DNA from: Dehalococcoidia bacterium
GTDB lineage: Bacteria; Chloroflexota; Dehalococcoidia; SZUA-161; SpSt-899
Direction of reading: 5' to 3'
Assembly (NCBI GenBank): GCA_046484125.1
Contig: JAWOBX010000043.1
Coordinates: 3,047-67,046, forward strand
DNA: 64,000 nucleotides
Below the pieces are notes generated by a model that was given only the letters and a program-made list of their open reading frames with translations, was not told where the DNA came from and made no database searches. Within the stretch, counting starts at the first letter, position 1; every line of letters begins with the position of its first letter. Positions 2,074 through 64,000 of this stretch are shown here, one piece after another. The position numbers and the translations under genes are program-made.

Positions 2074-2076
2074 TGA

Positions 2077-25382: not shown

Positions 25383-25438
25383 TGAAGGGCCTCCTTCTTC
25401 TTAATTAAATTTCAGGCAATATATTTTTTCTGCCCAGT

Positions 25439-27661
25439 CTACATCATTGGTTCCATGGAAAGTGCCGGATGCCCCTTTTCCTCCAGGAAAGCGAGTAATC
25501 CATCGGAATCCTGTGCGATGTCCCCGTCGCAAATCTTATCCATTAAGTCGGGCTCGCCAGCCATCTCGCATGCGGCCTTCAGATCTTCAGCAAACTCCTC
25601 TTTGAGGTTCTTGGAGAGCCAGACCAGTCGTTTTATTCCTCCATCCGCTGAGATAAACTTGTTGCTGGTAATATACGTTTTGCCGTGTCCCATCATGCCC
25701 GGCGTTTGCTGTCCGCCTCCCATAACACCCATTAACTGAGTGAACGTCATGCCTGCTGGTGTATTGCTGTAATCATCTCGTGAAACAACCATCACCCCGT
25801 TCGCTTCCGGTACAATGGACATTACGCACTCACAGCATCCACAAGTGGTCATGGGCGCGTCCATTACAGAATAAATGGTAAATCTTTCAATAGCCTGCTG
25901 AGAATTCTGGTATACGAAGTCATTTACTCCCTGCCATTCGCCCTTCTCCTCGGAAAGGCAGCTCCCCTTATTTACAGGCTGGTTTGCTCCGTTTGGATTG
26001 ATTTCATATGCCGCTCTACAGTCGAGCCAGCTGTATGCTCCGCAGAGTCCTACCCGTTCAGGATTGATAATACAAACGTGCGTAGGGGCGAATGACTGGC
26101 AGAGTGTGCAACTGTAGTATACATCGACCGCGCTGTCCGTCATGCCCGAGACTCGCTCATTTCTCTCTTTGTATACTTCTCGCGCCTGTTCGATCAGTTC
26201 ATCAACCTTGGCAGGATCGGTATAGATAGTAGTCTGAACTTTATCTACGATTGCACCATAATGGTTATGGAAGTTTGCGTGGAGGATAATTCCGATATCC
26301 TTTGCCCGGAAACCCTTATCTACCGCATTTTTATGAATACGGATCCAGGTGATATCCCGCTGGCCCTGGTGCTGTACACCCTCGGCACCATTGATGAAGT
26401 GGTGTATCTGCCGTTCCAGTACTCCCTCGAAATCCTTCTGCATTTTACGCCCGGCGACATCCACCACGATTGCCATGGGGATCTTGGCTCCTACATCAGC
26501 GGAATCCAGATCCGGCCCCACAAGATCGACTTTCCCGTCCTCAACCTCATCGACATCCTTCATTCGAAGCCATTCGAAGCAGGTACCTCCCTTTCCTCCC
26601 ATCTCAACCCTGAGATCGGCCTTGCGAACAACTTCACCCTCAAAGGCCGGGCCATAAGAAACAGGAATCGGTACCTTGGTTACTTTGATCTTGATGCCGC
26701 GGACTTCAATACATTTCTCGACAAGGCGCTCGACCCGTTCCATATCGTCTTTGCCCGGAATATCATCAAATGGCATGCTGACGACATGCTCGTATTGAGT
26801 GATTCCGACCGGCAATATGTTTGGAATCAGGGTATCGGCGACAACCGGGAATCCATAGTTGATGGCACCGGCTGCAGTAGCGTATTTCAGCTCGTCAATG
26901 GGTCCAAGTGCCAGCGCAAAAGCGAAGCATCTGAATTTGTTATATAGAAGGTTTCGTCTGGCGTCACCCGCTTCGTATCCACCGAAACTGATGGCCGCGC
27001 GAGTGGCGTAACCCAGGGCATATATTATGGATTCAGTATCACTGCCGAACGGTATGGTGAATGTGTCGTATCCCAGGTCAACCCCCTGGTTTAACAACTG
27101 GCCTGTAAGGGTTGTGCCGTTGTTATCGCCGGCCATGAAAACAAGAAGGCCTTTGGACTGGAGCTCGCGGATCAGTTTAACCGCTACATCTTCGTTCTTG
27201 GCCGCACCAAGTATGGCCGCGAAGCCTGGCATGGTCCCATCGACCATAGCCACACCCCAGGACCTGACCTGAACATCATCAACAGCACCGTTCCATGTAA
27301 AACCGTTACTTACCTCGGGCTGCTGCCCTCTGGCATACTCAATTCCTTTAATACCCTCTTCCGCGAAAAGGGTTGCCATACCCGCATCCAGAGTTTCTCC
27401 CAGGTAAGGAAGCCAAATATTATCTGATGGAGGTGGGGGGAGAAGTGATTTGCTGTATTCCAGTACTGGTTGAAGATCGCTGACCTTCTCAACCTTTTGG
27501 CCTGTCAGCCCATAGATTACAGGGAGATAATACACGGTATTCGGTAGTTTGATCGGAGCGTCGCCCCCGGGGTCCTTCATTGCATCATTAAGTAAATCCT
27601 CGAACTTCTTAACCTCTGCGTTTGCGCCTTTAATTGCTGCTGTTGCGATAAATCTGGACAT
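25439..27661 (-). CDS. acsB: Acetyl-CoA synthase catalytic subunit (A-cluster protein)
   Basis: The product is 740 aa and has the AcsB-type N-terminus (…TVYYLPVIYGLTG…) and the C-terminal A-cluster Cys motif region (…CTLCQSFAPTHVCII…CGA…). Confidence 0.85.
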   Translation of the reverse strand: MSRFIATAAIKGANAEVKKFEDLLNDAMKDPGGDAPIKLPNTVYYLPVIYGLTGQKVEKVSDLQPVLEYSKSLLPPPPSDNIWLPYLGETLDAGMATLFAEEGIKGIEYARGQQPEVSNGFTWNGAVDDVQVRSWGVAMVDGTMPGFAAILGAAKNEDVAVKLIRELQSKGLLVFMAGDNNGTTLTGQLLNQGVDLGYDTFTIPFGSDTESIIYALGYATRAAISFGGYEAGDARRNLLYNKFRCFAFALALGPIDELKYATAAGAINYGFPVVADTLIPNILPVGITQYEHVVSMPFDDIPGKDDMERVERLVEKCIEVRGIKIKVTKVPIPVSYGPAFEGEVVRKADLRVEMGGKGGTCFEWLRMKDVDEVEDGKVDLVGPDLDSADVGAKIPMAIVVDVAGRKMQKDFEGVLERQIHHFINGAEGVQHQGQRDITWIRIHKNAVDKGFRAKDIGIILHANFHNHYGAIVDKVQTTIYTDPAKVDELIEQAREVYKERNERVSGMTDSAVDVYYSCTLCQSFAPTHVCIINPERVGLCGAYSWLDCRAAYEINPNGANQPVNKGSCLSEEKGEWQGVNDFVYQNSQQAIERFTIYSVMDAPMTTCGCCECVMSIVPEANGVMVVSRDDYSNTPAGMTFTQLMGVMGGGQQTPGMMGHGKTYITSNKFISADGGIKRLVWLSKNLKEEFAEDLKAACEMAGEPDLMDKICDGDIAQDSDGLLAFLEEKGHPALSMEPMM

Positions 27662-41937: not shown

Positions 41938-42013
41938 GGCTCCATCGTCTAGGGGACTAGGACATCGGCCTTTCAAGCCGAAAACAGGGATTCGAATTCC
42001 CTTGGAGCCACCA
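41938..42013 (+). tRNA. tRNA-Glu (anticodon UUC), CCA encoded
   Basis: A manual cloverleaf gives acceptor GGCTCCA/TGGAGCC, anticodon stem TCGGC/GCCGA with loop CTTTCAA, and T-arm AGGGA-TTCGAAT-TCCCT. The 3' end is ACCA. It is near-identical in layout to E. coli tRNA-Glu. Confidence 0.9.
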
Positions 42014-46939: not shown

Positions 46940-47030
46940 ATAAAGTGGTGACCTCTGGGGTCCGCGGCTTTCCTCCCGGATTTACAATCCCCCTTGGGAT
47001 TTGGTGGGAATAATAAGGGTTGGTCAGCTT
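46940..47030 (+). repeat. GC-hairpin intergenic repeat, degenerate copy F
   Basis: AAGTGGTGACCTCTGGGGTCC… shares the 5' core of the family. Confidence 0.35.
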
Positions 47031-47299
47031 TCCTTATTTTGTGACCAAACTCAATGCCGTCCAAATCTGAACCCTTAAACTTCGAGCGGTCCCGGTAGAT
47101 CTTTCTCATGGCGTCGAAGTGGAGCTGGTTGATTAAAAGCCCGGTTTTCCGCTGACTCTCATAGTTGTCAGCTTGTAATCCGCTTGTGTTCTCCTGCGCC
47201 TGAGGAAAGAATAGCGTTATGACAGTGACTGCTGTTAAACTTTACTTTAACATTAAAGAGTGACATTTTGGCAGTCGAACAGCATAATCTAAGGAGACT

Positions 47300-47508
47300 C
47301 TTTTAGTAAGTGGCGACTTCGGGGATCTGGTGGTGTCCGCCAGCTTCAGATTTCCCCCGGGACCGGGGGATTAAAAGGGGTTGATCAGAGGCTCATTAAG
47401 GAATCTCTCAATAAGAGATGACTTCGGGGGTCTGGGGGTGTTCCCCAGCTTCATAAGTCCCCGGGACCGGGGACTTAAAAGAGGTTGATCAGAGGCTCAT
47501 TAAGCAAA
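47300..47508 (+). repeat. Tandem pair of GC-hairpin intergenic repeats (copies B1 and B2) abutting the ispG start codon
   Basis: Two units of about 95 nt are present: AGTAAGTGGCGACTTCGGGGATCTGG…CCCCCGGGACCGGGGGATTAAAAGGGGTTGATCAGAGGCTCATTAAGG and GACTTCGGGGGTCTGGGGGTGTTCCCCAGCTTCATAAGTCCCCGGGACCGGGGACTTAAAAGAGGTTGATCAGAGGCTCATTAAGCAAA-ATG. Confidence 0.6.
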
Positions 47509-48558
47509 ATGATCAAGAGGCGAATATCGCGACCCATAAATGTCGGTGGGGTAAAGGTCGGGGGGGGAGCCCGCGTGGTGATCCAGTCAATGACGAAGAC
47601 TGATACTCGCGACGTTTCCGCCACTCTTAATCAGATTAACCGGCTGGCGGAGTGCGGGTGCGGAATAGTACGTCTTGCCGTTCCCGATATGGACGCCGCC
47701 GACTCACTTGGAAGGATTAAGAAATCTTCACCAATACCATTGATAGCTGATATACATTTCGATCATAGACTGGCGGTTGCTTCCATAAATAGTGGCGTTG
47801 ATCAAGTCAGGTTCAATCCGGGCAATATCAGGGGAGACGAAAAAATCGCTGAGATCGTCAGGTGTGCCAGCGAAAGATCTCTGCCACTTAGAATAGGCGT
47901 AAATGCCGGAAGTCTGGCGCACAAGCGGGATGAGGCGGAGCTCGCCACCTTGATGGCCGAAGCGGCATTGGACCAGGTGCGGCTGCTGGAAGATATGAAC
48001 TATGATTTGATCGAAATATCCCTGAAGGCATCGGATGTGATGACCACAATCGAGGCGAACAAGCTGATCGCATTGAAAACGCCGTATCCGTTGCATATTG
48101 GAATTACCGAGGCCGGGTTGCCGGGTCCCGGCAGCATACGCAGCGCGGTGGGACTGGGGGTTTTGCTCTATGAGGGACTGGGTGACAGCTTGAGAGTTTC
48201 ACTCACTACGCCGGATCCGTGTGAAGAGGTGCTGGCTGGCCTGGATATCCTTCATTCACTGGAACTGATGGACAGTACTCCCAGACTCATAAGCTGCCCC
48301 ACATGCGGGCGTTGTGAGGCGGAAGGATTCTTCGAACTGGCAGGAGCGATCGAAAAGGAATTGAGGAAGCTGGAGAAACCGGTAACGGTGGCGGTGATGG
48401 GTTGTGTGGTCAATGGCCCCGGGGAGGCGCGAGACGCTGATGTTGGTCTGGCCTGCGGCAGGGGGAGAGGTGTGATCTTTAAAAAGGGTGAAAAGGTCGC
48501 TACTGTTGAAGAAACCGAGTTCTTTAGCGCCCTGATGAAGGAAATAAGTGTGTTGTAG
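47509..48558 (+). CDS. ispG: 4-hydroxy-3-methylbut-2-en-1-yl diphosphate synthase (flavodoxin)
   Basis: The TIM-barrel region and the C-terminal CPTCGRC [4Fe-4S] motif are conserved. The ATG sits at the end of repeat B2. Confidence 0.85.
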   Translation: MIKRRISRPINVGGVKVGGGARVVIQSMTKTDTRDVSATLNQINRLAECGCGIVRLAVPDMDAADSLGRIKKSSPIPLIADIHFDHRLAVASINSGVDQVRFNPGNIRGDEKIAEIVRCASERSLPLRIGVNAGSLAHKRDEAELATLMAEAALDQVRLLEDMNYDLIEISLKASDVMTTIEANKLIALKTPYPLHIGITEAGLPGPGSIRSAVGLGVLLYEGLGDSLRVSLTTPDPCEEVLAGLDILHSLELMDSTPRLISCPTCGRCEAEGFFELAGAIEKELRKLEKPVTVAVMGCVVNGPGEARDADVGLACGRGRGVIFKKGEKVATVEETEFFSALMKEISVL

Positions 48559-48644
48559 CGGATCATATGGTCCGGAAATCGTCATCATCGAAAATTGCTT
48601 GTGAGGACTGATGATCAAACCTTAGGTAAGCTGAAAATCAAGCA

Positions 48645-48700
48645 ACCTTTCAGAGTAAGTGGTGACTCCGGGGGATCCGGTCGGTCAGAGGTTTCAGACG
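48645..48700 (+). repeat. GC-hairpin intergenic repeat, truncated copy C
   Basis: CCTTTCAGAGTAAGTGGTGACTCCGGGGGATCCGG… has the 5' core only. Confidence 0.35.
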
Positions 48701-48727
48701 ATTTCCATGTAATTAGAGGGAAAGGAA

Positions 48728-49639
48728 TTGACTCACATATCAATATCCACAATGTGGAGTGAGAGATTTACGAACATCGCTGAGTTCATACAGGATGCCA
48801 GGGGCACGGGTTTTACGCATCTGGAACTTAACAGCATATTATCACCAGAACGTCTAAAAGAACTCCTTTCGGTCAATGATCTCGGGATATCCAGTGTCCA
48901 CGCTCCATCGCCCAATACGGAAACAGCCGCGGGAATGGCCAACCGTCTTTCTCTGGGATCGCTGAATGAAAATGAGAGACGGGCGGCCATAGAGGTTACC
49001 GTATCCACGATCAACCTCGCTTCAGAGGTGGGCGCCCGGGTAGTTGTTGTACATGCGGGGTACGCCGATATGAATCCGGATATGGAAAAAGATCTGCGAA
49101 GAATGTATTTGGACGGTCTGGGGGAGAGCGACGAGTTTGAAAGATTGCGATGCAGTATAGTTGAGTTACGGTCGTTTAACGCCTGTCCGCACGTTGACGC
49201 GGCAAAAGAGAGCCTCAGGGAGCTCGCCGATTACGCTAGGAAAAAAGGGATTCAGATTGCCCTTGAGAATAGAGTCAACTATCACGAGATTCCCAGCATA
49301 GACGAGATGGTAGACATAATGAGTGAGTTTCAGCCGGAGGTGGTAGGGTACTGGCATGATGTTGGTCACGCAGAGATTCAGTCCCGAACAGGTTTCACTC
49401 CTCATATGGACTGGTTTAAAGCACTTGAGGATCGAATGGTGGGTGTTCACTTACACGATCTCCGGGGGCTGAAGGATCATTATGCCCCGGGGTCTGGAGA
49501 CATCAACTGGCGGTTGCTGGCTGACAAGCTGGCCGGGAACATAGTCCGGGTTTGTGAAATAGCAGCATGGAATGAGCCTGAGGATGCCGGCGGGGCCATA
49601 AGCTTCCTGAAGGAGACGGGGGTACTCAGTCATTCTTGA
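48728..49639 (+). CDS. Sugar-phosphate isomerase/epimerase (xylose-isomerase-like TIM barrel)
   Basis: The AP_endonuc_2/XylA-like fold (…HAPS…, …VVHAGY…, …LENR…, …HD…) is recognisable. It starts with TTG and a GAGGGAAAGGA RBS. Confidence 0.6.
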   Translation: MTHISISTMWSERFTNIAEFIQDARGTGFTHLELNSILSPERLKELLSVNDLGISSVHAPSPNTETAAGMANRLSLGSLNENERRAAIEVTVSTINLASEVGARVVVVHAGYADMNPDMEKDLRRMYLDGLGESDEFERLRCSIVELRSFNACPHVDAAKESLRELADYARKKGIQIALENRVNYHEIPSIDEMVDIMSEFQPEVVGYWHDVGHAEIQSRTGFTPHMDWFKALEDRMVGVHLHDLRGLKDHYAPGSGDINWRLLADKLAGNIVRVCEIAAWNEPEDAGGAISFLKETGVLSHS

Positions 49640-49735
49640 AAACCAGCCGAATATCATGTGCACTAATACCGGGGCTGGAAGATGCCCGCTGATTGATTGA
49701 TCACAGAATGATATTGAGCATGGTCCGGAGAAAAA

Positions 49736-50692
49736 ATGCGCGCCGTTGTTTTTGACAGAGAATTACGTTTCGTCCGTGATTATCCGGTCCCCTCGCGTGA
49801 ACCCGGATGGGCCATGATTCGGGTCAGTCTGGCAGGTATCTGCAAGACTGATATAGAGATCACCAAAGGATATATGGGGTTTTCCGGGGTCGTGGGGCAT
49901 GAATTCGTGGGTATTGTCGATGAAGCCGAGGATCCCGTTTTGGTCGGTAAGAGGGTGGTCGGGGAGATAAACGCGGCTTGCGGTAAATGTCAAATATGTG
50001 ATATAGGATTGGGACGGCACTGCCCTCACCGGTCTACTTTGGGGATCGACAAGCTCGATGGTTGTATGGCGGATTACTGTGTATTACCGGTGAGCAATCT
50101 GGTAAGGGTTCCCGATGGAATTTCCGACGAAAGGGCTGTCTTTATTGAGCCACTCTCCGCCGCGTGTGAAATACTTCAGCAGCTAAGGCCGGAGCTCTGG
50201 GAACGCGCGGTGGTGCTGGGGGATGGGAGGCTGGGGATACTGTGTTCCTGGGTACTTTGTACCGTACTTTCCGACGTAACTCTGGCAGGCCATCATCCAG
50301 AGAAGCTTGGTATCGCGCAATGGCGAGGATTGAAGACGACGAGAGATGCCGGCAAATCGGTAACGAACGCCGACATCGTCGTGGAGGCGACCGGCTCACC
50401 GGATGGATTAAGGGAGGCTATGGAGATCTGCGGGCCCAGGGGCAGGATAGTACTAAAGTCAACGATCGCGGCACACACTGATTTGAACCTTTCGCCGCTG
50501 GTGATAAACGAGCAGACTTTGATAGGGTCGCGTTGTGGTCGGTTTCAAGACGGACTTCGAATCCTGGAATCTTATCCGGATATGCCAATCGAAAGAATGA
50601 TCACAGGTCGGTACTCGATCGAAGAGTCATTAGCCGCGTTCGACCGGGCGGTAAAACCGGATGCGCTTAAAATACTGATAAAGGTAGACTGA
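49736..50692 (+). CDS. Zinc-dependent alcohol dehydrogenase (MDR family)
   Basis: The catalytic Zn site GICKTDIEI…GHEFVG and the structural Zn site CGKCQIC…C are present. Confidence 0.8.
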   Translation: MRAVVFDRELRFVRDYPVPSREPGWAMIRVSLAGICKTDIEITKGYMGFSGVVGHEFVGIVDEAEDPVLVGKRVVGEINAACGKCQICDIGLGRHCPHRSTLGIDKLDGCMADYCVLPVSNLVRVPDGISDERAVFIEPLSAACEILQQLRPELWERAVVLGDGRLGILCSWVLCTVLSDVTLAGHHPEKLGIAQWRGLKTTRDAGKSVTNADIVVEATGSPDGLREAMEICGPRGRIVLKSTIAAHTDLNLSPLVINEQTLIGSRCGRFQDGLRILESYPDMPIERMITGRYSIEESLAAFDRAVKPDALKILIKVD

Positions 50693-50738
50693 TTAAACAA
50701 CCCGGGTCTACTATAAACGAAGGCTGGTACTCGATACT

Positions 50739-51782
50739 ATGAAGATAAAACCGATAGAATGGCAAGATGGAAAGATTATACTTTTAGATCAGACCCGCCT
50801 ACCGAGGGAGGAAGTATTCCTTGAAATACCGGGTGTCGATGGAATTTGTGAGGCAATCAAGGCGCTCCGGATTCGAGGCGCTCCGGCTATTGGTGTCGCC
50901 GCGGCTTATGGGTTGGTGCTGGGCGCGCGGGAAATCATGGAAGAATCGAGAGAAGACTTCCTGTCGCAGTTAAAGAGGATATCCGACACCATTTTGGAGA
51001 CACGCCCTACAGCGGTGAACATATTCTGGGCGCTGGAGAGAATGAAGCGGACCGCCAGCGGCTTCTCAGATACTGAGGAGATTAAATCTGCTCTGGAGGG
51101 AGAAGCCCGCGCCATTGAGAGAGAGACGGCTGAGGATGACCGCAGGTTGAGTGAATACGGGGCCGAACTGATACATGACGGTTCCACCATACTCACTCAT
51201 TGCAATGCCGGATCCCTTGCCACATCCGGTTATGGTACAGCACTGGGCATGATCGGCGCGGCTTTCGAGCGGGGCAAACGAATCCAGGTGTTTGCCGATG
51301 AGACGAGACCGTTACTGCAGGGAGCTAGACTTACTACCTGGGAGTTGATGAGGGCTGGAATACCGGTGACTCTCATCACCGATAATATGGCGGGCCATTT
51401 CATGAAGCAGGGGAAAATAGACTGTGTAGTAGTGGGAGCCGACAGGATCGCAGCTAACGGGGATGTAGCGAACAAGATCGGCACATACAGCGTAGCGGTA
51501 CTGGCTCACGAGCACGAAATCCCGTTTTACGTCTGTGCCCCTGTTAGCACAATAGATTTTTCGATCCAATCCGGTAGCGAAATCCCTATAGAGGAGAGAG
51601 ACGCGCGTGAAGTCACTGAGATACTTGGAGTCCGTATAGCCCCTGAGGGTGTACATGTATTGAATCCGGCATTCGATATCACGCCTCACAGCTATGTTTC
51701 TGCTATAATTACGGAAGAGGGTGTGGCCAGAGCGCCTTATCTGGACAGTCTGGGGAAAATGCGTAAAGGAGAGAGGTATTGA
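50739..51782 (+). CDS. mtnA: S-methyl-5-thioribose-1-phosphate isomerase (eIF-2B family)
   Basis: …[17 protein letters not shown]…[12 protein letters not shown]…[18 protein letters not shown]…. Confidence 0.8.
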
Positions 51783-52645
51783 CTAAGGGAGCAAAGATCG
51801 GAGTGATAGGGGGAACCGGCCTGTATGAGATAGAGGGGATGGTGGGCCTGGAGGAGGTTAAGGTTCATACTCCTTTTGGTGACCCCAGTGACGTGATCGG
51901 CATTGGAAGCCTCGAAGGGGTCAACATCGCGTTTCTGCCAAGACATGGAAAGGGGCATCGTATAGCTCCGAATGAGTTACCGCAAAGGGCCAACATCTGG
52001 GCGCTGAAATCCCTTGGCGTGGAATGGATCATAGCCGTCAACTCCGCTGGAAGCTTTAAACAGGAGGTCAGGCCGCGGGAACTGGTTATTCCCGACCAGG
52101 TCATAGATCGAACCAGGGGAAGAATAAATACGTTTTTTGGTAACGGTGTGGTTGCTCACCTGACATACGCCAAGCCCTTCTGCCCGGTGCTCAGCGGGAT
52201 ACTCTTTCAGGCCGCACAGGAAGCGGGAGCCAGAGTGCACAAGGGCGGTACGTTTGTTGCTATGGAGGGACCGCAGTTTTCCACTGTGGCGGAATCACGA
52301 CTGTATAAGTCGTGGGGGGCCGATATTATAGGTATGACGGTCCTCCCTGAGGCGAAGCTGGCACGCGAGGCTGAAATATGTTATGCCACGGTGGCGTGTG
52401 TTACCGATTATGATTCCTGGCATGATGATCTGGGAGAGGTGAGGATAGAGGAGATTATAGAGATACTCTCTCAGAACGTGGACAGGGCCAAACAGATAAT
52501 CAGGATAGCTGCCATGAATGTCCCTGAGATCCGAGAATGTAATTGTATCAACGCGCTTGAAAACGCTATTGTTACCGATCCGGCGGCGATACCGGACGAG
52601 GTCAGACGTGACCTGGACATTATTATCGGGAAATATATCAAGTGA
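51779..52645 (+). CDS. mtnP: S-methyl-5'-thioadenosine phosphorylase
   Basis: It has the MTAP/PNP-I fold (IGVIGGTGL…FGDPS…LPRHGKGH…). A 4-nt overlap with mtnA indicates translational coupling. Confidence 0.85.
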
Positions 52646-52655
52646 GGCGGCCAAA

Positions 52656-53705
52656 TTGAATAATAATGATTTCAAACTAAACCTCGCGGGTCTGGCTACG
52701 GCTATCGGCAGCATGCCCCATACCGATCCGGCTAAAGCGTGTGAAGTGGTAAGAGAATATCTACCCGACATCCCGGTATGGCCGCAACTGCCCAACAGGT
52801 CGTTTCTGGAGAATATGTATGTTCAGTACAGCGAAGGTCTGCCTGGCATCGTACTGAGTGAAGAAAGAATTCATATCGACCGCACCGTAGACCTCTCGGA
52901 TCAGATGGAAGCGCTGTACGCGGCTTATATAGAGAATGATCTGGACCGATATGCCGTTTCCAGAGAATATGCTCTGGGCCTGCATGAATTCTTAAATATG
53001 AAGCTGGATTCGGCGAGGGCGGTTAAGGGTCAGGTGACCGGCCCTGTCAGCTTTGGCCTGACGGTTACCGATCAGGATCGCCGTCCCACACTGTATGATG
53101 AGACGCTGGCGGACGCAATAGCCTTTCATCTCCGCCTGAAAGCGGCGTGGATGGAAAGGGAGCTGGCTAAGTTATCGCCGAATACAATCGTTTTTCTCGA
53201 TGAGCCGTATCTGGCGTCTCTGGGTTCCGCCTTCGTAGCAATCGACAATGAAATTGTCATCAGGCTCACCAACGAAGCGTTGGGTGGTATACGGGGCCTG
53301 AAGGGGATGCATTGTTGCGGCAACACCGACTGGTCTGTTCTGATGGCAACCGAAATAGATATACTCAATTTCGACGCGTATACTCATGGTGAGGCACTGG
53401 TGCTCTATCCCTCCGCAGTGCGGGAATTTCTTGATCGTGGTGGCATACTGGCATGGGGTATAGTTCCCAGTGACGAAACAGAGGTGGCCGGGGTTACTGC
53501 AAGTGGCCTGATAGACAGGTTGTCGGAATTGATGGATTACCTGACTGGAAAGGGTGTCGACCGTGAGGCGCTCGCGAAGCAGTGCCTGATAACTCCGTCA
53601 TGTGGTGCTGGTTCTCTTTCGGAGGGGGCCGCAGAGTCGGTGTTGAAGCTGACTGAGGAGGTCTCCTCTCAATTCAGAAATTCAAAAAGACTTGGTGGCG
53701 GATAA
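52656..53705 (+). CDS. MetE-like (cobalamin-independent methionine synthase C-terminal / UroD-like fold) protein
   Basis: FLDEPYL resembles the MetE IQIDEP motif and MHCCGNTD resembles the Zn-ligand HMCY motif. The start was set at TTG (TGAGG RBS) just after the mtnP stop, because the track ORF start would overlap mtnP by 128 nt. Confidence 0.5.
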   Translation: MNNNDFKLNLAGLATAIGSMPHTDPAKACEVVREYLPDIPVWPQLPNRSFLENMYVQYSEGLPGIVLSEERIHIDRTVDLSDQMEALYAAYIENDLDRYAVSREYALGLHEFLNMKLDSARAVKGQVTGPVSFGLTVTDQDRRPTLYDETLADAIAFHLRLKAAWMERELAKLSPNTIVFLDEPYLASLGSAFVAIDNEIVIRLTNEALGGIRGLKGMHCCGNTDWSVLMATEIDILNFDAYTHGEALVLYPSAVREFLDRGGILAWGIVPSDETEVAGVTASGLIDRLSELMDYLTGKGVDREALAKQCLITPSCGAGSLSEGAAESVLKLTEEVSSQFRNSKRLGGG

Positions 53706-53706
53706 A

Positions 53707-55347
53707 ATGGACCTTGATATCATCGGAATAGGCTCGGCTTTAGTAGACATAACTATTGAAGTTGATGATAAATTCCTGGATGCTGAGGGATTACCCAAGG
53801 GCGGGATGACTCTGGTTGAAGCGGATCGGTCAAAGGAATTACAGCAAAAGCTTAAAGGTATGACCAGAGAGATCTCGCCGGGCGGGGCTACAGCCAATGT
53901 CATGGCCTCGTTTGCCCATTGTGGGGGAAGGGCGGGATTTATTGGCAAGGTTGGCCGCGATGAGATGGGAGCGTATTTCGAGCAGGAGACGGAGGCGGTC
54001 GGGGTGAAGTTTGTGAAGCTGGTATCGGAAAGCTCGCCTACAGGTATCGGCCTGACACTGATAACTCCCGATAGGCAGCGGACGTTTGCCACCAATCTCG
54101 GGGCGGCCGTAGAGCTTTCACCGGCTGACCTTTCAGAAGAACTTCTAAATCAGGCGCACATTCTGCACCTGGAGGCGTACCTGGTTTTTAACCGGGAGCT
54201 TATGGATTTCATTCTGAGTACGGCCAGGGCAAATGGCCAGAGGATCTCTATGGACCTATCCTCATTTGATACGGTGAAAGAAAATCTGGAATACCTGGAG
54301 AGGATAGTAAAAGATCATCTCGATATAGTTTTTGCCAACGAGGATGAGAGCCTCGCCTTTACAGGGCTCGCGACGAGGGAATCACTTGGTGTCCTTTCCC
54401 GCCTGTGTGAGATCGCTGTTGTCAAGGAGGGGGCTCTGGGTTCCCATATAGCCAATGGTGCGCATCGTGTTTTTCTACCCGCGGAAAAGGCATGGGTTGT
54501 AGATACCAACGGGGCTGGAGACGCCTATGCGGGAGCGGTTTTATATGGGTTGAGTCAGGGTATGAGCGTATCAACCTGTGGGCGTATTGGTACCAGAGCG
54601 GGTGGGCTGATTGTTGGCCAGAGAGGAGCAAGGTCGACGCCTGATAACGCCAGGTTCCTGCGTGACTTTGCTGAAGAACTGGGTATGCTGATGTTGAGAC
54701 GGCTTCAGTCGGGAAGCCTCACACCAGAGCTAGTGGTGGGGGTGGGGGAGGAAATCGCCTCTTTTCATGAGAAGGCGGCTGTATGTGAGGAACCGGACAA
54801 ATATGGTAGCCCCGAATGGGTCGGAGCGGCTGTGGCGGAGGTTTTCAGCGAGTTAGAAGATTATGTGGGAAAAACCATTGAAGAGGAGCAGTACAGCGCG
54901 TTGAGGAGCTACATGGAGGGGTTCCTGGAAGATAAAGACCGTCTAATGGAGAGCCGGGTTGAGCAGGGGAGAATAATCTCCTGCCACGGTGAATTGCATA
55001 CCGAACATATCTGTCTGGGAGATTCGGTTACCATCCTTGACTGCCTGGAGTTCGACGATCGATTCAGCTACAGTGATCCGGCTTACGATCTGGGTTTACT
55101 GACAATGGAACTCGGTTTCCATGGCCGTTCGGACTTGGAAGAGGTGCTGGAAAGGTCGTATGTAGAGAGTTCGGACGATAGACAGATTATAGAGATGTTG
55201 CCGTTCTATAAAATATATCATGCTCTGGTCAGGGGCAAATATACCAGTTTCCGCCTTGAAGATGAGGATATATCGAAGGAAGAGAGGGAGACTGTTATTG
55301 ATACTTCAAGGCACTATTTCGAACTGGCTTGTTCTTATCTGCCCTGA
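53707..55347 (+). CDS. PfkB-family sugar/nucleoside kinase fused to a C-terminal aminoglycoside-phosphotransferase-like (MtnK-like) kinase lobe
   Basis: The N-terminal 330 aa is a ribokinase fold (…DTNGAGDAYAGAVLYG…). The C-terminal roughly 220 aa carries a Brenner-like HGELHTEHI and ILDCLEFDD…SDPAYDLG, matching APH/choline-kinase catalytic and activation segments. Confidence 0.6.
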   Translation: MDLDIIGIGSALVDITIEVDDKFLDAEGLPKGGMTLVEADRSKELQQKLKGMTREISPGGATANVMASFAHCGGRAGFIGKVGRDEMGAYFEQETEAVGVKFVKLVSESSPTGIGLTLITPDRQRTFATNLGAAVELSPADLSEELLNQAHILHLEAYLVFNRELMDFILSTARANGQRISMDLSSFDTVKENLEYLERIVKDHLDIVFANEDESLAFTGLATRESLGVLSRLCEIAVVKEGALGSHIANGAHRVFLPAEKAWVVDTNGAGDAYAGAVLYGLSQGMSVSTCGRIGTRAGGLIVGQRGARSTPDNARFLRDFAEELGMLMLRRLQSGSLTPELVVGVGEEIASFHEKAAVCEEPDKYGSPEWVGAAVAEVFSELEDYVGKTIEEEQYSALRSYMEGFLEDKDRLMESRVEQGRIISCHGELHTEHICLGDSVTILDCLEFDDRFSYSDPAYDLGLLTMELGFHGRSDLEEVLERSYVESSDDRQIIEMLPFYKIYHALVRGKYTSFRLEDEDISKEERETVIDTSRHYFELACSYLP

Positions 55348-55434
55348 GCAGGCATGTTGAACAGGCCTCATGTTTTGTTGCGCCATGAAAACGGTAGGAG
55401 ATTCAGGCCGCTTAAGATCACAAGGGGGAAGTCA

Positions 55435-56139
55435 GTGAAAAGGTTGATTTTAATTATTGCTGTTTGTATAGCCCTGGTGCTGGCGTTGCCGGGTTGCGGC
55501 GACGACGATGACTCGGACGGTTCGGGGTTTGAAATAGCGGCTTCCGGGGCAGTAGCACTCATCGATTCACATATCAGTAGTGTGATTAGCGACATGGAAG
55601 TGGTCGCAATGACAAGCGAGATCAAATCGGGCGACTGGGAGCGCATGGAGCCGCTGCTTGCCGAATTGAAGCAGGACGAAATTCCGGCTGTGTTGTGGTT
55701 TGTGCTACCGGACGGTTCATACTTTACTGTAGAAAAAGGTAAGGTGGACGAGAACCTCTCGGACCGATCATATTTTCCCGGCCTGATGGATGGCAGGAAC
55801 CAGATAAGCGGGCTTTTGACTAGTAAATCGACGGGTAAGAAGATGTTTGTTGCTGCCGTTCCGGTATGGTCCGATGGGGAGGTTATCGGGGGGTTGGGTG
55901 CCTCTGTTCTCTTGGACGGTTTGAGCGGGGTCTTGACCAGTGAGCTGCAACTGCCGTCCGACATGTTTTTCTATGTAACAGACGAAAGCGGTAAGGTGGC
56001 CCTGCATTCAAATACGGCTTTGATTATGGAAGAAAGTTCTGATATAGAAAATGGCCGTGTTGTGGCCACAAAAAAATCAGAGCTGATGGGCTGGAATTTC
56101 GCGCTGGCTTATATGACGGAAGACGCCAGCCTGGATTGA
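55435..56139 (+). CDS. Lipoprotein with a Cache/PDC-like periplasmic sensor fold
   Basis: A GTG start with an AAGGGGGAAG RBS is followed by a signal peptide and lipobox LPGCG, then a mixed alpha/beta region. Confidence 0.45.
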   Translation: MKRLILIIAVCIALVLALPGCGDDDDSDGSGFEIAASGAVALIDSHISSVISDMEVVAMTSEIKSGDWERMEPLLAELKQDEIPAVLWFVLPDGSYFTVEKGKVDENLSDRSYFPGLMDGRNQISGLLTSKSTGKKMFVAAVPVWSDGEVIGGLGASVLLDGLSGVLTSELQLPSDMFFYVTDESGKVALHSNTALIMEESSDIENGRVVATKKSELMGWNFALAYMTEDASLD

Positions 56140-56240
56140 AGTAAAACTCTGGTTGTTTCGGGTATCGGAGTGAGTATTTCCTGAATTGGGCACTTGAGAG
56201 TGCCTGTAGTTGTAACCCTTTTCACCCGGTTTTGTCAGGT

Positions 56241-57104
56241 ATGAGGATTGATCTACACATACACACGGGAACCGGATCGGATGGAAACCTCTCGGTGGAA
56301 GAGGTTCTGGCCGAGGCAGCTCGTAGAGGTATTGATTTACTGTCAGTAACCGATCATGATTCCATTGATTGCCAGGAAACGGCTTCGCGGCTGGCAGAAG
56401 AATACGGTATAGTATACATAACCGGCGTCGAATTAAATGTCTCCTTCGAGTATCCGGGAAGAAAGCTGGTCTCGCTGGATTTCCTGGGTTACAATTTCGA
56501 TCATGACAACCAGGAATTGAAAGAGAAGCTCGAGGAGATACGCCGGCATCGCCAGTCAAGGGCTCTCAGGATTATGGAGAACTTGAATGCCGAATTTAAC
56601 TCTGAATGGCTTGAAGAGTTAACCGGAGAGGATATGGAAGCGATTCAGGCCAGCGTGGATGGTTCATTCGGCCGGCCGCATATCGCCGATTACCTTATCA
56701 CCAGAGGCATCGTACAGAATAGACAGGAGGCTTTCGATAAGTATCTGGTCAAGTGCGATGTGCCCAAATATCCGCTCAGGCTGTCCGAGGCTTCAAGGTT
56801 GATCAGGGGTGCTGGTGGGGTGATCGTGCTTGCCCATCCCAATGATCCCGGCGGGACTTCGCTTGTGAACATAACGTCCCGCCTGGAAGAACAGGGAAAA
56901 ATAATCGAGGAATATATGCTGGAATATATAGACGGTGTAGAATGCTGGCATCCCCGTCATGATGGAAAAACTGTTGAATACTATGTGGATTTTTGCAAAA
57001 GACATAAGCTCCTGATGACGGGTGGCAGCGATTGTCATCAGAAACCGATCATTATGGGAACTATGCCTGTACCGGATTATGTCGCCGAGATTTTACCGGT
57101 ATGA
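56241..57104 (+). CDS. PHP-domain metal-dependent phosphoesterase
   Basis: MRIDLHIHTGTGSDG…SVTDHD is present. Confidence 0.75.
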   Translation: MRIDLHIHTGTGSDGNLSVEEVLAEAARRGIDLLSVTDHDSIDCQETASRLAEEYGIVYITGVELNVSFEYPGRKLVSLDFLGYNFDHDNQELKEKLEEIRRHRQSRALRIMENLNAEFNSEWLEELTGEDMEAIQASVDGSFGRPHIADYLITRGIVQNRQEAFDKYLVKCDVPKYPLRLSEASRLIRGAGGVIVLAHPNDPGGTSLVNITSRLEEQGKIIEEYMLEYIDGVECWHPRHDGKTVEYYVDFCKRHKLLMTGGSDCHQKPIIMGTMPVPDYVAEILPV

Positions 57105-57108
57105 GAAG

Positions 57109-58023
57109 ATGAAACTCACGCTTGACAGGAAGACGAAAACAATCGAGTACACGGAGAGGCATCCTTCCATTGAAGTAAAGCGGCTTACCAGCAGGGGAGA
57201 GATGTTGTCGTATATTGAGACAAATCGTTGCCATGCGGTGACCGCTTTTGCTCATCTGGATGCGAGCTTTCCGGAGATAGCGAGATGGCATGCCGCTACT
57301 GATGGAGAGCGGTTCGCGCTCTGTCTTATAGCCAAAGGGCTCTTTCCGACTTATATATTCACCATGGGCGACGCTGAGATGCTGGGGCTTCTGGTCGAAT
57401 CAATAGGAATGCCGGGCAGGGCTTTTTTCACCTGTGAGGCGGAACACCTGGAGACCTTGAGGAACATCTACCAAATAGAGTGGCATCTCTCTATGAAAAG
57501 GATGATGGTTACCGAGGGTGAATTTACGCCGGTGGCAGAAAAAGCAACAAGATTGCGGCCGGCTCAGGTGGCGGAGATCAATGCCCTTTACGCTCAGGAG
57601 AAGGCCAGCAATTTTACCTCGGCTCAAATCAGGAGAGGAGCGTTTCATGGTATCTGGCGGGATGGTCAATTGGTTGCGGTTGCCGGTACTCATTTCATTG
57701 TTCCTACTTACGGTATCGCCTATTTAGGGAATGTTTTGACCCACCCGCAGTATCGAAACCAGGGGCTCGCTACCACATGTGTCAGTTCGGTTACCACGGA
57801 GCTTCTAAAAACCTGCTCGGAGGTAGTATTGAATGTTGAGCCGTATAATCTGCCTGCGATAAGAACCTATACGGGCCTGGGATATAGGGATAAAGGTCAA
57901 GTGGTAGAAGGCTCGGGGCATCGAAAGAGCTTCGTAAGTGTTATAATAAGCAACATGTGTCGAAAATTTGGGTTGTTACCAAAATACGAGGAAAGGATGG
58001 AACCAGATGGAGAAAGCGCGTGA
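57109..58023 (+). CDS. GNAT-family N-acetyltransferase
   Basis: The C-terminal acetyl-CoA binding motif (…[14 protein letters not shown]…) is present. Confidence 0.65.
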
Positions 58024-59272
58024 ATATGATGTAAAGGACATGGCTCTCGCCGATGAGGGAATGTCAAATATCGAGTGGGCGGCTAACGAGATGCCGGTAC
58101 TCCGGTTGATAAGGAGCCGATTCGAGCAGGAAAAGCCACTCAAAGGCGTGAGAATTGCCGGCTGCCTGCATATTACGACTGAGACGGCTAACCTCGCTTT
58201 GACATTGCAGGCCGGTGGGGCCGAAGTGGCTTTGTGCGCGTCGAATCCGTTGAGCACTCAGGATACCGCGGCGGCGGCGCTGGTTAAGGCTGGAGTGCCG
58301 ACGTTTGCCATTAAAGGCGAGGATGACCAGATCTACTATAACCACATTAACGCGAACCTTGATCGAAAACCCCATATCACCATGGATGACGGATGTGACC
58401 TGGTGGCCACTGTTCACAAGAACCGCAGGGAATGCCTGGATGACATAGTGGGAGGCACTGAAGAGACAACCACAGGGGTAATCCGCCTGAGAAGCATGGA
58501 GAATCAGGGGAAACTGATGTATCCCATAGTCGCTGTGAATGATGCCAATACCAAGCATCTGTTCGATAACAGGTATGGTACGGGACAAAGCACCGTGGAT
58601 GGCATTACCAGGGCGACAAATATTCTCTGGGCGGGGAAAAAGGTGATTGTAGTGGGATATGGCTGGTGTGGACGTGGAATTGCCATGCGTGCCAGGGGAA
58701 TGGGCGCGCATGTAGTGGTAACAGAAGTGGACCCGATTCGAGCTCTGGAGGCCGTGCTGGATGGTTATGAGGTGATGACTATCATGGAGGCCGCAAGGCT
58801 CGGAGATATATTCATAACGGTTACCGGTGACTGGCACTGCCTGGATAAACAGCATTTCGATGTTATGAAAGACGGGGCGATCGTGGCGAACAGCGGCCAC
58901 TTCAATGTGGAGATTGATATACCGGCTCTGGAATCCATGGCGAAGGAGAAGAGGAAACCGCGGCAATTCGTGGATGAGTATGTTTTGCCCGACGGCCGCC
59001 GATTGATGCTGCTTGGTGAGGGAAGGCTTATAAACCTGGCGGCGGCAGAGGGGCACCCCGCAAGCGTTATGGATATGAGCTTCGCCAATCAGGCGCTGTG
59101 TGCCGAGTACATGGTGAAGAATAGCAAGGACCTTCAGAAAAAGGTCTATGGCGTTCCTGAAGACATAGATAAAGAAGTCGGCCGGTTGAAGTTGCAGGCG
59201 ATGGGAATTAAGATCGATACGCTTACCGTGGAGCAGGAGGAATATCTGGGAAGCTGGGAAAGCGGCACATAG
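58007..59272 (+). CDS. ahcY: Adenosylhomocysteinase
   Basis: The NAD Rossmann motif ([11 protein letters not shown]) and substrate-domain motifs are present. The product is 421 aa from MEKAREYD. Confidence 0.9.
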
Positions 59273-59299
59273 CTCAGAGGGCCTGCAAAAAGGTGGGTT

Positions 59300-59400
59300 A
59301 AGTAACCTCTTCAGTAAGAGGTTACTTTGGGGGATGTCCCCCAGCTTTAAAGGTCCCCATGATTGGGGGACTTAGGGAGTTGATCAGAGGTTCCTTAAGA
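59300..59400 (+). repeat. GC-hairpin intergenic repeat, copy D
   Basis: GTAACCTCTTCAGTAAGAGGTTAC (a 10-bp hairpin) is followed by TTTGGGGGATGTCCCCCAGCTTTAAAGGTCCCCATGATTGGGGGACTTAGGGAGTTGATCAGAGGTTCCTTAAG. It lies upstream of gatC. Confidence 0.5.
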
Positions 59401-59484
59401 ACAAAACTGCCGGCGGGCAGGTAGCGTAGGTTCAATGTAACCTGCGCTATTCATATAACTGATTATAGACAGCGGAGTGTTGAA

Positions 59485-59772
59485 ATGATGCTCGATCGTC
59501 AAGAAGTGGAAAGAATCGCGCTGCTCGCCCGATTGGGAATCAGTGAAGAGGAGGCGGAAAGGTTTCGTGAGCAGCTTTCCGATATCCTGGAGAATTTCGA
59601 GGTTCTCAGAGAGGTTAATACAACCAGCGTCTTGCCGACATCCCAGGCAACAGGATTGGAAAATGTGGTTAGTGAGGACAGATGTCAATCATCCCTGTTA
59701 CAGGACGAGATACTGGCAAATGCGCCCCAGGTGGAAGAAGGTTTCTTACGCATAAAAGCGGTTATGGAGTGA
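59485..59772 (+). CDS. gatC: Asp-tRNA(Asn)/Glu-tRNA(Gln) amidotransferase subunit C
   Basis: MMLDRQEVERIALLARLGISEEE…. Confidence 0.8.
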   Translation: MMLDRQEVERIALLARLGISEEEAERFREQLSDILENFEVLREVNTTSVLPTSQATGLENVVSEDRCQSSLLQDEILANAPQVEEGFLRIKAVME

Positions 59773-59787
59773 TTGGCGGGGTGACCG

Positions 59788-61275
59788 ATGAGGACAGCAG
59801 AACAGGTTAAGAATAGTACAATAGAGCGGCTCGATTACCTCTTTAATCCACGCTCAGTGGCCGTCATTGGCGCGTCAAATACATTCGGAAAGTGGGGCTT
59901 CAATATCTTCAATCATGTTTTGGCCTCGGCTCCGGAACGGCGTGTGTACCCGGTTAATGTCAGCGCGTCTGAGGTCATTGGTTTTAAGGCTTCGGCGCAT
60001 ATTACCGATATCCATGATGAGATAGACCTCGCGGTAGTGACTGTTCCGCCGGAACAGGTTATAGATGCGTTGAGAGAGTGCGTCGCAAAAGGTGTAAAGG
60101 TAGCTGAGGTGATAACGGCGGGATTCGAAGAAACAGGGGCTGATGGTGAACGCCTGCAAAAACAGATGCTGGAGATTGCGGGCAGCGGAGGTATGCGGCT
60201 GGTTGGCCCCAACTCCATGGGCCACCTGAGTACTCAGTTCGATTTCTACACTACGCCATGGATTACAGGAACTCCAAAAGGGGGAATCGGGCTCATTTCT
60301 CAGAGCGGGAACTTCGGTATAAATATCGTCCGGAAGGGCATGGAGACGCAGCTGGGATTCAGCAAGTTCATTTCGTCGGGAAACGAGGCCGATTTGACGC
60401 TGGAGGATTACCTCGAATATCTGGGCCAGGATGACGATACAGAAGTGATAATTGCCTATATTGAGGGGCTGCGTCGGGGGAGAAGGTTTTTCGAGCTGTC
60501 CAGGGAGATAACAAAACACAAGCCGATAGTTGTTCTGAAGGCGGGAAGGACAGCATCGGGAGCAAGAGCGGTTAAATCCCACACCGCGGCGCTTTCCGGA
60601 TCGGACAGGATATATGAGGCGGCGTTTAGACAGGCCGGTGTAATCAGGGTAAACGAGGTTGATGAGATGCTCGATGTGGCCGGAGCACTGATACGCCAGC
60701 CTTTGCCGAAGGGGAGGCGTGTAGGAATACTGACGGGGGGAGGGGGGCCGGGGGTAATCGCCACTGACGCATGCGAAAGACTGGGCCTGGAGATAGCCGC
60801 CGTTTCAGAAGGGACATTACAAAAGCTGGATTCGATACTGCCTCCCCGCTGGCCACGCACGAATCCGGTTGATATGGTCGGAGAAACCAATCTCACGTAC
60901 CCCTGCCTTCTGGCGCTGATGGAAGATGATAATGTTGACGCGGTGATTTCACTGGCTGTGGGCTTCGCTGACGCCATTAAAACAATCGTAATGGGATACA
61001 TGCAAACAGATGTCTATACTGAGGTAGACCAATTCATAGAGCAGGAGGGTAGACGCGAACTGGAACAGCTTAAACGAGTCATCGAGCTTATGGATACACT
61101 TCACAAACCTGTTTTCTTCTTCCCTCCCTCTGGTATAGAGGAATTCCGTACTTTACAGTTTCTCCGGGAGAACGGGGTGCTTACTTATCCAAGTACGGAG
61201 AGAGGTGTGAGGGCTCTGGCTCGACTGGTTGAATACAGTGATTACCTTGGTGGATTGGAGGGGTCGGAACAGTGA
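59788..61275 (+). CDS. ADP-forming acyl-CoA synthetase alpha-like protein (CoA-binding plus CoA-ligase domains)
   Basis: …[11 protein letters not shown]…GKWG…, …EVITAGF…, …VGPNSMG… are present. It lies between gatC and gatA, with a 4-nt overlap with gatA. Confidence 0.6.
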
Positions 61276-63532: not shown

Positions 63533-64000
63533 CTGTCAAAAGCTACTAAGGGCACGTGGAGGATGCCTTGGTGCCAAGAGCCGATGAAGGGCGTGGCTAG
63601 GCTGCGATAAGCCTCGGTTAGCTGCCAAGTAAGCCAAGCCGGGGATTCCCGAATGAGGTAACTCATCCGCCCGAAAGGCGGATACTCCTGGCTGAACACA
63701 TAGGCCAGGCAGGGGGAACCGGGGGAACTGAAACATCTTAGTACCCCGAGGAAAAGAGATTATTCCCTGAGTAGCGGCGAGCGAAAGGGGAGAAGCCCAA
63801 ACCCTGATGACCAAACGGTCCTGGAACCTGAGTCATCGGGGGGTTGTAAGACACGGCAAGCTCCGACCAGGTAGGAGCAGGGAGTTACAAACCGTAACCC
63901 TAGTTGAAGGACTCTGGAATGAGCCACCATAGAGGGTGAAAGTCCCGTAGGCGAAAGGGGGAGGCTCCCGGGCCGTGTTCTTGAGTACCACGGGGCACGG
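63533..64000 (+). rRNA. rrl: 23S ribosomal RNA, 5' portion (continues beyond the window)
   Basis: It shows conserved 23S 5'-domain strings (GGATGCCTTGG, GATGAAGGGCGTGG, CTGCGATAAGCC, GGGGGAACCGGGGGAACTGAAACATCTTAGTACCCCGAGGAAAAGA, GAGTAGCGGCGAGCGAAAGGGGA). Confidence 0.9.

Follow-up and report, generated by a model that had tools for sequence, protein, structure and literature searches.

Gene content and organisation of the locus

The window, a 64-kb stretch of genomic DNA from a Dehalococcoidia bacterium, carries six forward-strand genes at 48728-55347, all of which were present at these coordinates in a check of the open reading frames (ORFs). An earlier note, made from the sequence alone, had described them as six co-directional genes of named families, a description borne out by the ORF coordinates and by Pfam and NCBIfam searches. 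The first (48728-49639) encodes a TIM-barrel protein with an AP_endonuc_2 domain (PF01261, 92.5 bits) and the second (49736-50692) a Zn-dependent medium-chain dehydrogenase (ADH) with ADH_N, Glu_dehyd_C and ADH_zinc_N domains. These are followed by mtnA (50739-51782), encoding S-methyl-5-thioribose-1-phosphate isomerase (TIGR00512, 449 bits against a cutoff of 279), and mtnP (51779-52645), encoding 5'-methylthioadenosine phosphorylase (TIGR01694, 310 bits against a cutoff of 274.85); with both scores over the NCBIfam cutoff, the MtnP and MtnA step of canonical methionine salvage is present. A MetE-like gene (52656-53705) and a kinase gene (53692-55347), the latter with a PfkB domain (PF00294, 161 bits) and an APH-like C-terminal stretch (E 0.0018), complete the set.

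The spacing of these genes is looser than the several 4-nt overlaps that had been claimed, as mtnA and mtnP alone overlap by 4 nt. Gaps of 96 nt, 46 nt and 10 nt separate the TIM-barrel gene from ADH, ADH from mtnA and mtnP from the MetE-like gene, respectively, and at the junction with the kinase gene the choice of kinase start codon gives a 14-nt overlap or a 1-nt gap.

Upstream, on the same strand, lies ispG (47485-48558; GcpE Pfam domain), with 71% identity in the syntenic locus L001. Downstream, the same-strand run goes on past 55347 with a dCache-domain lipoprotein-like gene (55354-56139; Pfam dCache_1), a lineage-specific insertion with no match in related loci, and a PHP-family phosphoesterase gene (56232-57104), assigned by Pfam and synteny and a conserved member of its block. 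Next come a GNAT acetyltransferase gene (57109-58023; Pfam and synteny), whose probable start is the ATG at 57109 in an ORF listed from 57022, ahcY, encoding S-adenosylhomocysteine hydrolase (58007-59272; TIGR00936, 657 bits; ORF listed from 57968), and GatC. Between 47000 and 60000, a promoter and terminator scan found sites no more numerous than in shuffled sequence, and Rfam returned no riboswitch or other RNA family between 47000 and 59500.

The MetE-like protein and the fusion kinase

The most likely start of the MetE-like gene is the TTG at 52656, the listed ORF start at 52518 being too early, and the resulting 349 aa match the length of its homologues, which number more than 7000 (341-352 aa) and are named methionine synthase in Dehalococcoidia. 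The protein is a single domain related to the C-terminus of MetE, without the folate-binding N-terminal domain; it has no Pfam match (Meth_synt_1 and Meth_synt_2 are absent) and a weak NCBIfam match to PRK00957 (7.7e-8). A sequence search of the PDB matched only the repeats of designed PPR proteins, which we regard as spurious. Its zinc ligands H219, C221, D240 and C316 are invariant in the family alignment, and their spacing (2, 19, 76) is identical to that of the ligands of DET0516 at positions 214, 216, 235 and 311 (PMC7857596). Judged by its homologues, its zinc-ligand spacing and the type of operon in which it sits, the gene is assigned as mesB (core-metE), the folate-independent, methylcorrinoid:homocysteine methionine synthase of Dehalococcoidia.

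MesB/core-MetE has been shown biochemically to act as a methylcobalamin:homocysteine methyltransferase (PMC7005905, PMC7857596) and is defined by Price et al. by a score of at least 173 bits to DET0516 using phmmer, and the corrinoid iron-sulfur protein (CoFeSP)/acetyl-CoA synthase system has been proposed as its physiological methyl donor (PMC7857596). The genes of this system are encoded 25 kb upstream of mesB on the opposite strand, as acsC (23080-24426), acsD (24441-25382) and acsB (25439-27661), across which a Pfam search found CdhD, FeS, CdhC and ACS_CODH_B_C domains. The assignment does not support the part given to the MetE-like protein in the earlier note, that of handing back the methylthio group.

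Residues 1 to about 330 of the kinase form an adenosine-kinase-like PfkB domain, with top PDB matches to adenosine kinase (3ubo, 1.7e-53) and also to 4e3a, and no NCBIfam equivalog over its cutoff. Similarity and gene context suggest that this domain is an adenosine kinase producing AMP, a reading which fits the presence of ahcY in the same block. Residues of about 333-551 correspond to the last two thirds of an APH-like protein, sharing 41% identity with residues 116-333 of a stand-alone APH in locus L087. The usual partner of this APH-like family is an AAA_33 domain, and the catalytic motif HGD reads HGE in the kinase lobe. The fusion to this lobe is genuine and conserved, and the same PfkB-APH arrangement occurs in P0361 at 63% identity and free of gaps.

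A probable junction of two conserved blocks and the place of the TIM-barrel gene

The six genes are probably the junction of two conserved Dehalococcoidia blocks and not one pathway. The first would be a lipid and isoprenoid block, uppS-cdsA-dxr-rseP-ispG-TIM, in which ispG is the last gene of the conserved part and the TIM-barrel gene the end. The second would be a class-wide block for S-adenosylmethionine recycling, mtnA-mtnP-mesB...PHP-ahcY(-metK), and the order mtnA-mtnP-mesB...PHP-ahcY-metK is found in related loci. Among 82 MesB-centred loci, with denominators that differ by gene, mtnP lies directly upstream of mesB in 38 of 55, mtnA is located at most 5 kb upstream in 24 of 30, ahcY at most 8 kb downstream in 15 of 19 and metK at most 9.5 kb downstream in 14 of 18, and mtnP and mesB are closely coupled throughout the class. 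By the same survey, ADH occurs within 6 kb upstream of mesB in 1/26 loci and the TIM-barrel gene within 7 kb upstream in 1/24. The Zn-ADH and PfkB genes are additions particular to the window's clade.

The TIM-barrel gene goes with ispG and not with the mtn genes. Its family is Chloroflexota-wide (516 relatives were found in genomes); orthologues follow ispG in 11 surveyed loci on several deep branches, five of which have a ProS-like gene next (named from its N-terminal sequence), and ispG and the TIM-barrel gene overlap by 4 nt in locus L172. The copies adjacent to mtn genes form one shallow clade, and locus L171 has the mtn block and no TIM-barrel gene. An apparent IspG-TIM fusion ORF in L020 was rejected as an artefact of a masked N run at the junction. 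A second context is found in 51 genomes among the surveyed loci, including other Dehalococcoidia, where the orthologue lies between ino1, encoding inositol-3-phosphate synthase (TIGR03450, 523 bits), and a CDP-alcohol transferase gene whose product scores 152.7 bits on the phosphatidylinositol-phosphate (PIP) synthase model NF045883.

The family alignment has H58, E180, H210, D211, H214, H241, H243, D250, H251 and E277 invariant and H109 near-invariant, so that many invariant His and Asp residues are present in addition to the E-D-H-E set of sugar isomerases and epimerases. From a reading of the motifs and an alignment with MJ1311, this His/Asp/Glu set looks like the metal site of endonuclease IV; aligned by hhalign against an approximate E. 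coli endonuclease IV sequence, the region of H109 alone was matched, and not significantly (E 0.36). Among solved structures the best match is Methanocaldococcus jannaschii MJ1311 (PDB 3wqo), described as a D-tagatose 3-epimerase-like protein (profile 2.9e-15, Foldseek rank 1). It shares the HPG, LEN, D-x-G-H-A, H-x-H-D and D-(E)-H motifs with the TIM-barrel protein, but at about 21% identity and in another genomic context. The MJ1311 structure described by Uechi et al. in Acta Cryst F in 2014 reportedly conserves the nine zinc ligands of endonuclease IV.

The structure-based annotation that the earlier note had called for placed MJ1311 at the top; the PDB matches of the AF2 model (pLDDT 95.7), led by ketose 3-epimerases at a TM of about 0.68, are at a generic superfamily level that is not diagnostic. 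No characterised isomerase or epimerase equivalog of NCBIfam was matched, the best being IolO with 40.5 bits against a cutoff of 300, and an assignment of the TIM-barrel, ADH and PfkB proteins to inositol catabolism as IolO, IolM and IolC was rejected as generic superfamily similarity, with all scores far under the NCBIfam cutoffs. Context and residues make it more likely that the protein is a metal-dependent, lipid-linked phosphoesterase than a sugar isomerase. Because its orthologue sits between ino1 and the PIP-synthase-like gene in other Dehalococcoidia, it is a candidate PIP phosphatase for the bacterial phosphatidylinositol route (Ino1, PIP synthase, PIP phosphatase), although the copy in the window differs in following ispG with no ino1 in view. 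A literature search for a PIP phosphatase with a TIM barrel returned nothing relevant. The family offers a modest, testable lead toward lipid head-group metabolism.

S-adenosylmethionine by-products and competing explanations

The earlier note's view that the cluster concerns S-adenosylmethionine by-products holds, with mtnA, mtnP, mesB and ahcY in one conserved block. AhcY would convert S-adenosylhomocysteine to homocysteine and adenosine, MesB would methylate the homocysteine to methionine, its methyl-corrinoid donor probably being the CoFeSP encoded at 23080-25382, and the PfkB domain may turn the adenosine into AMP. Methyltransferase activity has been shown for the D. mccartyi MesB orthologue, while CoFeSP as donor is a proposal from the literature (PMC7005905, PMC7857596). 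As established for their families, MtnP and MtnA would convert methylthioadenosine, and probably also 5'-deoxyadenosine, to adenine and (methylthio/deoxy)ribulose-1-phosphate, and the step that follows is not encoded in the window.

The earlier note was also right that the usual downstream enzymes are missing near mtnA and mtnP. The window encodes no MtnB, MtnC (or MtnW and MtnX) or MtnD, and no RuBisCO-like protein or cupin methylsulfurylase of the MTA-isoprenoid shunt, with about 30 ORFs covered by Pfam and the remainder by eye; the neighbouring ispG belongs to the usual dxr-rseP-ispG block. Aldolase_II was not matched among the ORFs scanned by Pfam, and tblastn with an approximate FucA query, a weak test, found no FucA-like match (E<=0.01) in the window and the 82 MesB-centred loci. 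Literature searches combining Dehalococcoides or Dehalococcoidia with methylthioadenosine (phosphorylase) or mtnA, and the DHAP shunt with Chloroflexi, yielded nothing relevant.

The first alternative to the two-block reading is a partial DHAP shunt, in which the product of MtnP and MtnA passes to an aldolase that is encoded elsewhere or unrecognised and the Zn-ADH reduces 2-(methylthio)acetaldehyde or acetaldehyde, leaving the roles of the TIM-barrel protein, MesB and PfkB unchanged. The DHAP shunt proceeds through MtnP, or MtnN and MtnK, then MtnA, the Ald2 aldolase and finally an alcohol dehydrogenase (PMC10986504), and the window likewise has MtnP and MtnA adjacent with an alcohol dehydrogenase beside them. 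ADH immediately precedes mtnA not only in the window but also in nine other loci (L001-L003, L006, L008, L009, L092, L171 and L172), with a 4-nt gap in L171 and a 4-nt overlap in L172, and it remains with mtnA in L171, where ispG-TIM is absent. However, neither the window nor the related loci examined, about 170 by the same weak tblastn test, contain Ald2, the class II aldolase which defines the shunt. Furthermore, the mtn block of Dehalococcoidia is mostly without ADH, as the single occurrence counted above demonstrates, and ADH orthologues with 63-66% identity in Syntrophales, Smithellaceae and another Chloroflexota lie in unrelated contexts with no mtn neighbours. Orthologues at 60-70% identity extend across several phyla, all NCBIfam matches are under the equivalog cutoffs and the best PDB match, RspB, reaches 100 bits only. 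We consider this alternative unlikely. The linkage of ADH to mtnA is confined to the window's clade and stable there, and given this stable placement, ADH may take part in S-adenosylmethionine by-product metabolism, e.g., acting on a by-product-derived aldehyde.

Since mtnA-mtnP is conserved with no MtnB, Ald2 or RuBisCO-like gene in more than 80 Dehalococcoidia neighbourhoods, an enzyme of an unrecognised type may dispose of (methylthio/deoxy)ribulose-1-phosphate. This reading, in which the translationally coupled Zn-ADH of the window's clade would take part in that route and, separately, the TIM-barrel family could be a PIP phosphatase, is improbable.

The undescribed salvage variant of the earlier note, in which the TIM-barrel protein and ADH stand in for the aldolase, the methylthio or methyl group goes back to methionine through the MetE-like protein and the kinase acts on methylthioribose or 5-deoxyribose, has the adjacency and shared direction of the six genes and the absence of known downstream enzymes from the window and related loci in its favour, but is contradicted by the gene contexts and very improbable: the TIM-barrel gene has ispG or ino1 and a PIP-synthase-like gene as partners and is dispensable for the mtn block, an isomerase and a dehydrogenase cannot alone cleave a C-C bond, the MetE-like protein corresponds to MesB, whose activity has been characterised, and the nearest solved relatives of the PfkB domain are adenosine kinases, a methylthioribose kinase being redundant because MtnP is present. 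A false lead is removed by the two-block reading, as the apparent six-gene pathway becomes a junction of two ordinary blocks and the MetE-like gene has a function that was already characterised.

The closest known system is the operon of D. mccartyi, of the same class as the window's organism, where core-MetE (cbdbA481/DET0516) shares one operon with metK (cbdbA476) and ahcY (cbdbA477) (PMC7005905, PMC7857596). The two are alike in the single-domain relative of the MetE C-terminus of about 345 aa with its H-x-C...D...C zinc site, in the clustering of mesB with ahcY (joined by metK in relatives) and in the presence of CoFeSP genes in the genome. The window differs in the Zn-ADH added upstream of mtnA, in metK lying outside it, in the adjoining ispG-TIM and in the PfkB-APH C-lobe fusion that stands in place of an APH and AAA_33 pair. 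Many uncultured Dehalococcoidia have the genes for methylthioadenosine phosphorolysis, methionine synthesis and S-adenosylhomocysteine hydrolysis in one conserved block, which shows lineage-specific swaps such as the replacement of that pair by an adenosine-kinase-like PfkB gene.

The methionine and S-adenosylmethionine block around mesB

The region between 48728 and 55347 is a further case of the known Dehalococcoidia methionine and S-adenosylmethionine (SAM) block, here adjoining an ispG-TIM block. All six + strand ORFs claimed in the earlier note are present and belong to the families described (Pfam, NCBIfam): a TIM barrel protein (48728-49639; AP_endonuc_2, 92.5 bits), a Zn-dependent dehydrogenase with medium-chain Zn-ADH domains (ADH; 49736-50692), MtnA (50739-51782; TIGR00512, 449 bits), MtnP (51779-52645; TIGR01694, 310 bits; both scores exceed the model cutoffs), a MetE-like protein (52656-53705; no Pfam match, and a weak match to the PRK00957 methionine synthase model) and a kinase (53692-55347; PfkB, with residues 407-489 weakly matching APH). 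The several 4-nt overlaps claimed between them come down to one, that of mtnA and mtnP. ispG is the immediate upstream neighbour of the TIM gene, and downstream of the kinase the run goes on with genes for a dCache lipoprotein, PHP, GNAT, AhcY (TIGR00936, 657 bits) and GatC. The dCache-domain lipoprotein-like gene (55354-56139), between the kinase and PHP genes, has a counterpart in none of the related loci surveyed. No riboswitch was found in 47000-59500 (Rfam), and a scan of 47000-60000 for promoter and terminator signals gave nothing informative.

The window's proteins were used in tblastn surveys of 82 MesB-centred loci, gathered by scanning metagenome contigs and adding two loci from genomes, and each gene was counted over the loci long enough to score. 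The usual gene order was (APRT-adenine deaminase)-mtnA-mtnP-mesB-(APH-like, AAA_33)-PHP-ahcY-metK. Directly upstream of mesB, mtnP was found in 38 of 55 loci, and mtnA lay within 5 kb upstream in 24 of 30, while ahcY (15/19, within 8 kb) and metK (14/18, within 9.5 kb) followed downstream. The ADH was found within 6 kb upstream of mesB in one of 26 loci, TIM within 7 kb upstream in one of 24, and PfkB directly downstream in one of 56. These counts identify the core of the finding as a class-wide SAM recycling block, in which the TIM barrel and the ADH are both dispensable. In many Dehalococcoidia (e.g., 1487-3707 of the related locus L087), the genes immediately upstream of mtnA encode adenine phosphoribosyltransferase (APRT) and adenine deaminase, which would take care of the adenine that MtnP sets free; the window has neither gene at that position.

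MesB and its possible methyl donor

On its sequence, the MetE-like protein is assigned to MesB/core-MetE. Its gene most likely starts at the TTG at 52656, preceded by a GAGG motif, giving a 349-aa product that matches its homologues in length; these number more than 7000, and those from Dehalococcoidia are named 'methionine synthase' by NCBI. Deobald et al., looking in the operon with metK (cbdbA476) and ahcY (cbdbA477) of Dehalococcoides mccartyi, found and purified cbdbA481 (343 aa), which used methylcobalamin, but not methyl-THF, to methylate homocysteine (PMC7005905). The family was named MesB by Price et al., who give the Zn ligands of the D. mccartyi protein DET0516 as residues 214, 216, 235 and 311 (H, C, D, C; PMC7857596). 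H219, C221, D240 and C316 of the window protein have identical spacing, S19 and D182 are also present, and all six residues are invariant in an alignment of 23 homologues.

Genes for AcsC, AcsD and AcsB (23080-27661, - strand; Pfam), i.e., the corrinoid iron-sulfur protein (CoFeSP) and acetyl-CoA synthase, are also present in the window, 25 kb upstream of mesB. Their presence fits the proposal that CoFeSP is the methyl donor to MesB.

The PfkB kinase and its APH-like lobe

The best PDB match of kinase residues 8-320 was adenosine kinase 3ubo (1.7e-53), followed by 4e3a. Both products of AhcY, homocysteine and adenosine, need removal, and an adenosine-kinase-like PfkB therefore fits as a partner of AhcY. 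Residues 333-551 align without gaps, at 41% identity, with positions 116-333 of an APH-like protein that stands alone in the same mesB block of L087. This lobe (54690-55347) has 5913 relatives in a library of 1.84 billion proteins, most of them of ~520-540 aa, in which an AAA_33 P-loop domain comes after the APH-like part. The same fusion occurs in the 551-aa protein P0361, with 63% identity over 544 ungapped residues, so the PfkB-APH fusion is real and under selection. In both proteins HGE replaces the usual HGD motif, and closer relatives have a PfkB protein of 326-335 aa lacking the lobe.

In most Dehalococcoidia the place of the PfkB gene, between mesB and PHP-ahcY-metK, is held by a conserved pair encoding an APH-like protein (~333 aa) and an AAA_33 P-loop protein (L087 14164-17096). 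The occupation of this slot by an adenosine-kinase-like PfkB gene in the window's clade may represent non-orthologous displacement of a kinase.

The TIM barrel, the dehydrogenase and the proposed salvage route

The TIM barrel belongs outside the mtn/SAM block, in contexts with ispG or with ino1 and a PIP-synthase-like gene. Its family is nearly limited to Dehalococcoidia and other Chloroflexota (516 confirmed matches in one-genome-per-species contigs). In 51 surveyed genomes the TIM gene is flanked by genes for inositol-3-phosphate synthase (TIGR03450, 523 bits) and a CDP-alcohol phosphatidyltransferase, then purA; the transferase scores 152.7 bits with the PIP synthase model and 151.3 with that of archaetidylinositol-phosphate synthase, both just below cutoff. 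In 11 other genomes, spread over several deep branches of the TIM tree, the gene follows cdsA-dxr-rseP-ispG, and in five of these 11 the next gene is ProS-like, judged by its N-terminal sequence. Only in one shallow clade of nine sequences, the window included, does the ADH or mtnA come after TIM. Among related loci, L172 has a 4-nt overlap of ispG with TIM, mtnA directly follows TIM without the ADH in L011, and L171 has ADH-mtnA-mtnP-mesB-pfkB-PHP with no ispG or TIM upstream. Some close relatives (L001-L003, L006 and L009; in L001 at 10955-11224) carry a small DUF4404 gene between TIM and ADH, which the window and L008 lack. An apparent ispG-TIM fusion in L020 (671-aa ORF) was rejected as an artefact of a masked run of N at 2744-2840 in the public record.

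The AF2 model of the TIM protein has a pLDDT of 95.7, and both profile search and Foldseek gave MJ1311 (3wqo) as the closest solved relative. H58, E180, H210, D211, H214, H241, H243, D250, H251 and E277 are invariant in the family and H109 nearly so, giving the pattern H...H...E...D-x-x-H...H-x-H-D...D-H...E. This pattern suggests a multi-metal phosphoesterase site of the endonuclease IV type rather than the E-D-H-E site of ketose epimerases. A profile alignment of TIM with endonuclease IV was not significant; MJ1311 reportedly has all nine endonuclease IV ligands. Our best guess, held with low confidence, is a candidate phosphoesterase in lipid head-group synthesis, acting for example on phosphatidylinositol phosphate, possibly as a PIP phosphatase. 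The family is seen at 48728-49639 of the window, L004 8816-11576 and L172 4036-5993.

Orthologues of the ADH (60-70% identity) occur in Syntrophales, Desulfobacterales, Lentisphaerae and Chloroflexota, and the surroundings of three of them (63-65% identity) are unrelated and contain no mtn genes. NCBIfam offered no characterised equivalog for the ADH and the PDB no closely related structure, its best match there being RspB (100 bits). Within the window's clade the ADH is constantly upstream of mtnA, with a 4-nt gap in L171 and a 4-nt overlap in L172; in L091 it lies beside mesB on the opposite strand. That the ADH acts on an aldehyde derived from methylthioadenosine or 5'-deoxyadenosine is conceivable, the one argument for it being this clade-level linkage.

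The earlier note combined the TIM barrel, ADH, MetE-like protein and kinase into an undescribed salvage variant, which is not supported, since the SAM block needs neither TIM nor ADH; the MetE-like protein, taken as a piece of that route, falls in a biochemically characterised family. Its statement that genes for a class II aldolase, a RuBisCO-like protein and MtnB/C/D are missing here was borne out within the 64-kb window (Pfam on part of the ORFs, the rest by eye). With an approximate sequence of E. coli FucA as query, tblastn gave no FucA-like match at E ≤ 0.01 in either the window or any of the 82 loci. A class II aldolase is the defining enzyme of the DHAP shunt (PMC10986504), and locally the shunt thus lacks it. 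Elsewhere in the window there is a tRNA gene (41938-42010), and an AsnC-type regulator gene is immediately followed by a 23S rRNA gene (63536-64000, with its start at 63536); no 16S rRNA precedes the latter in the window.
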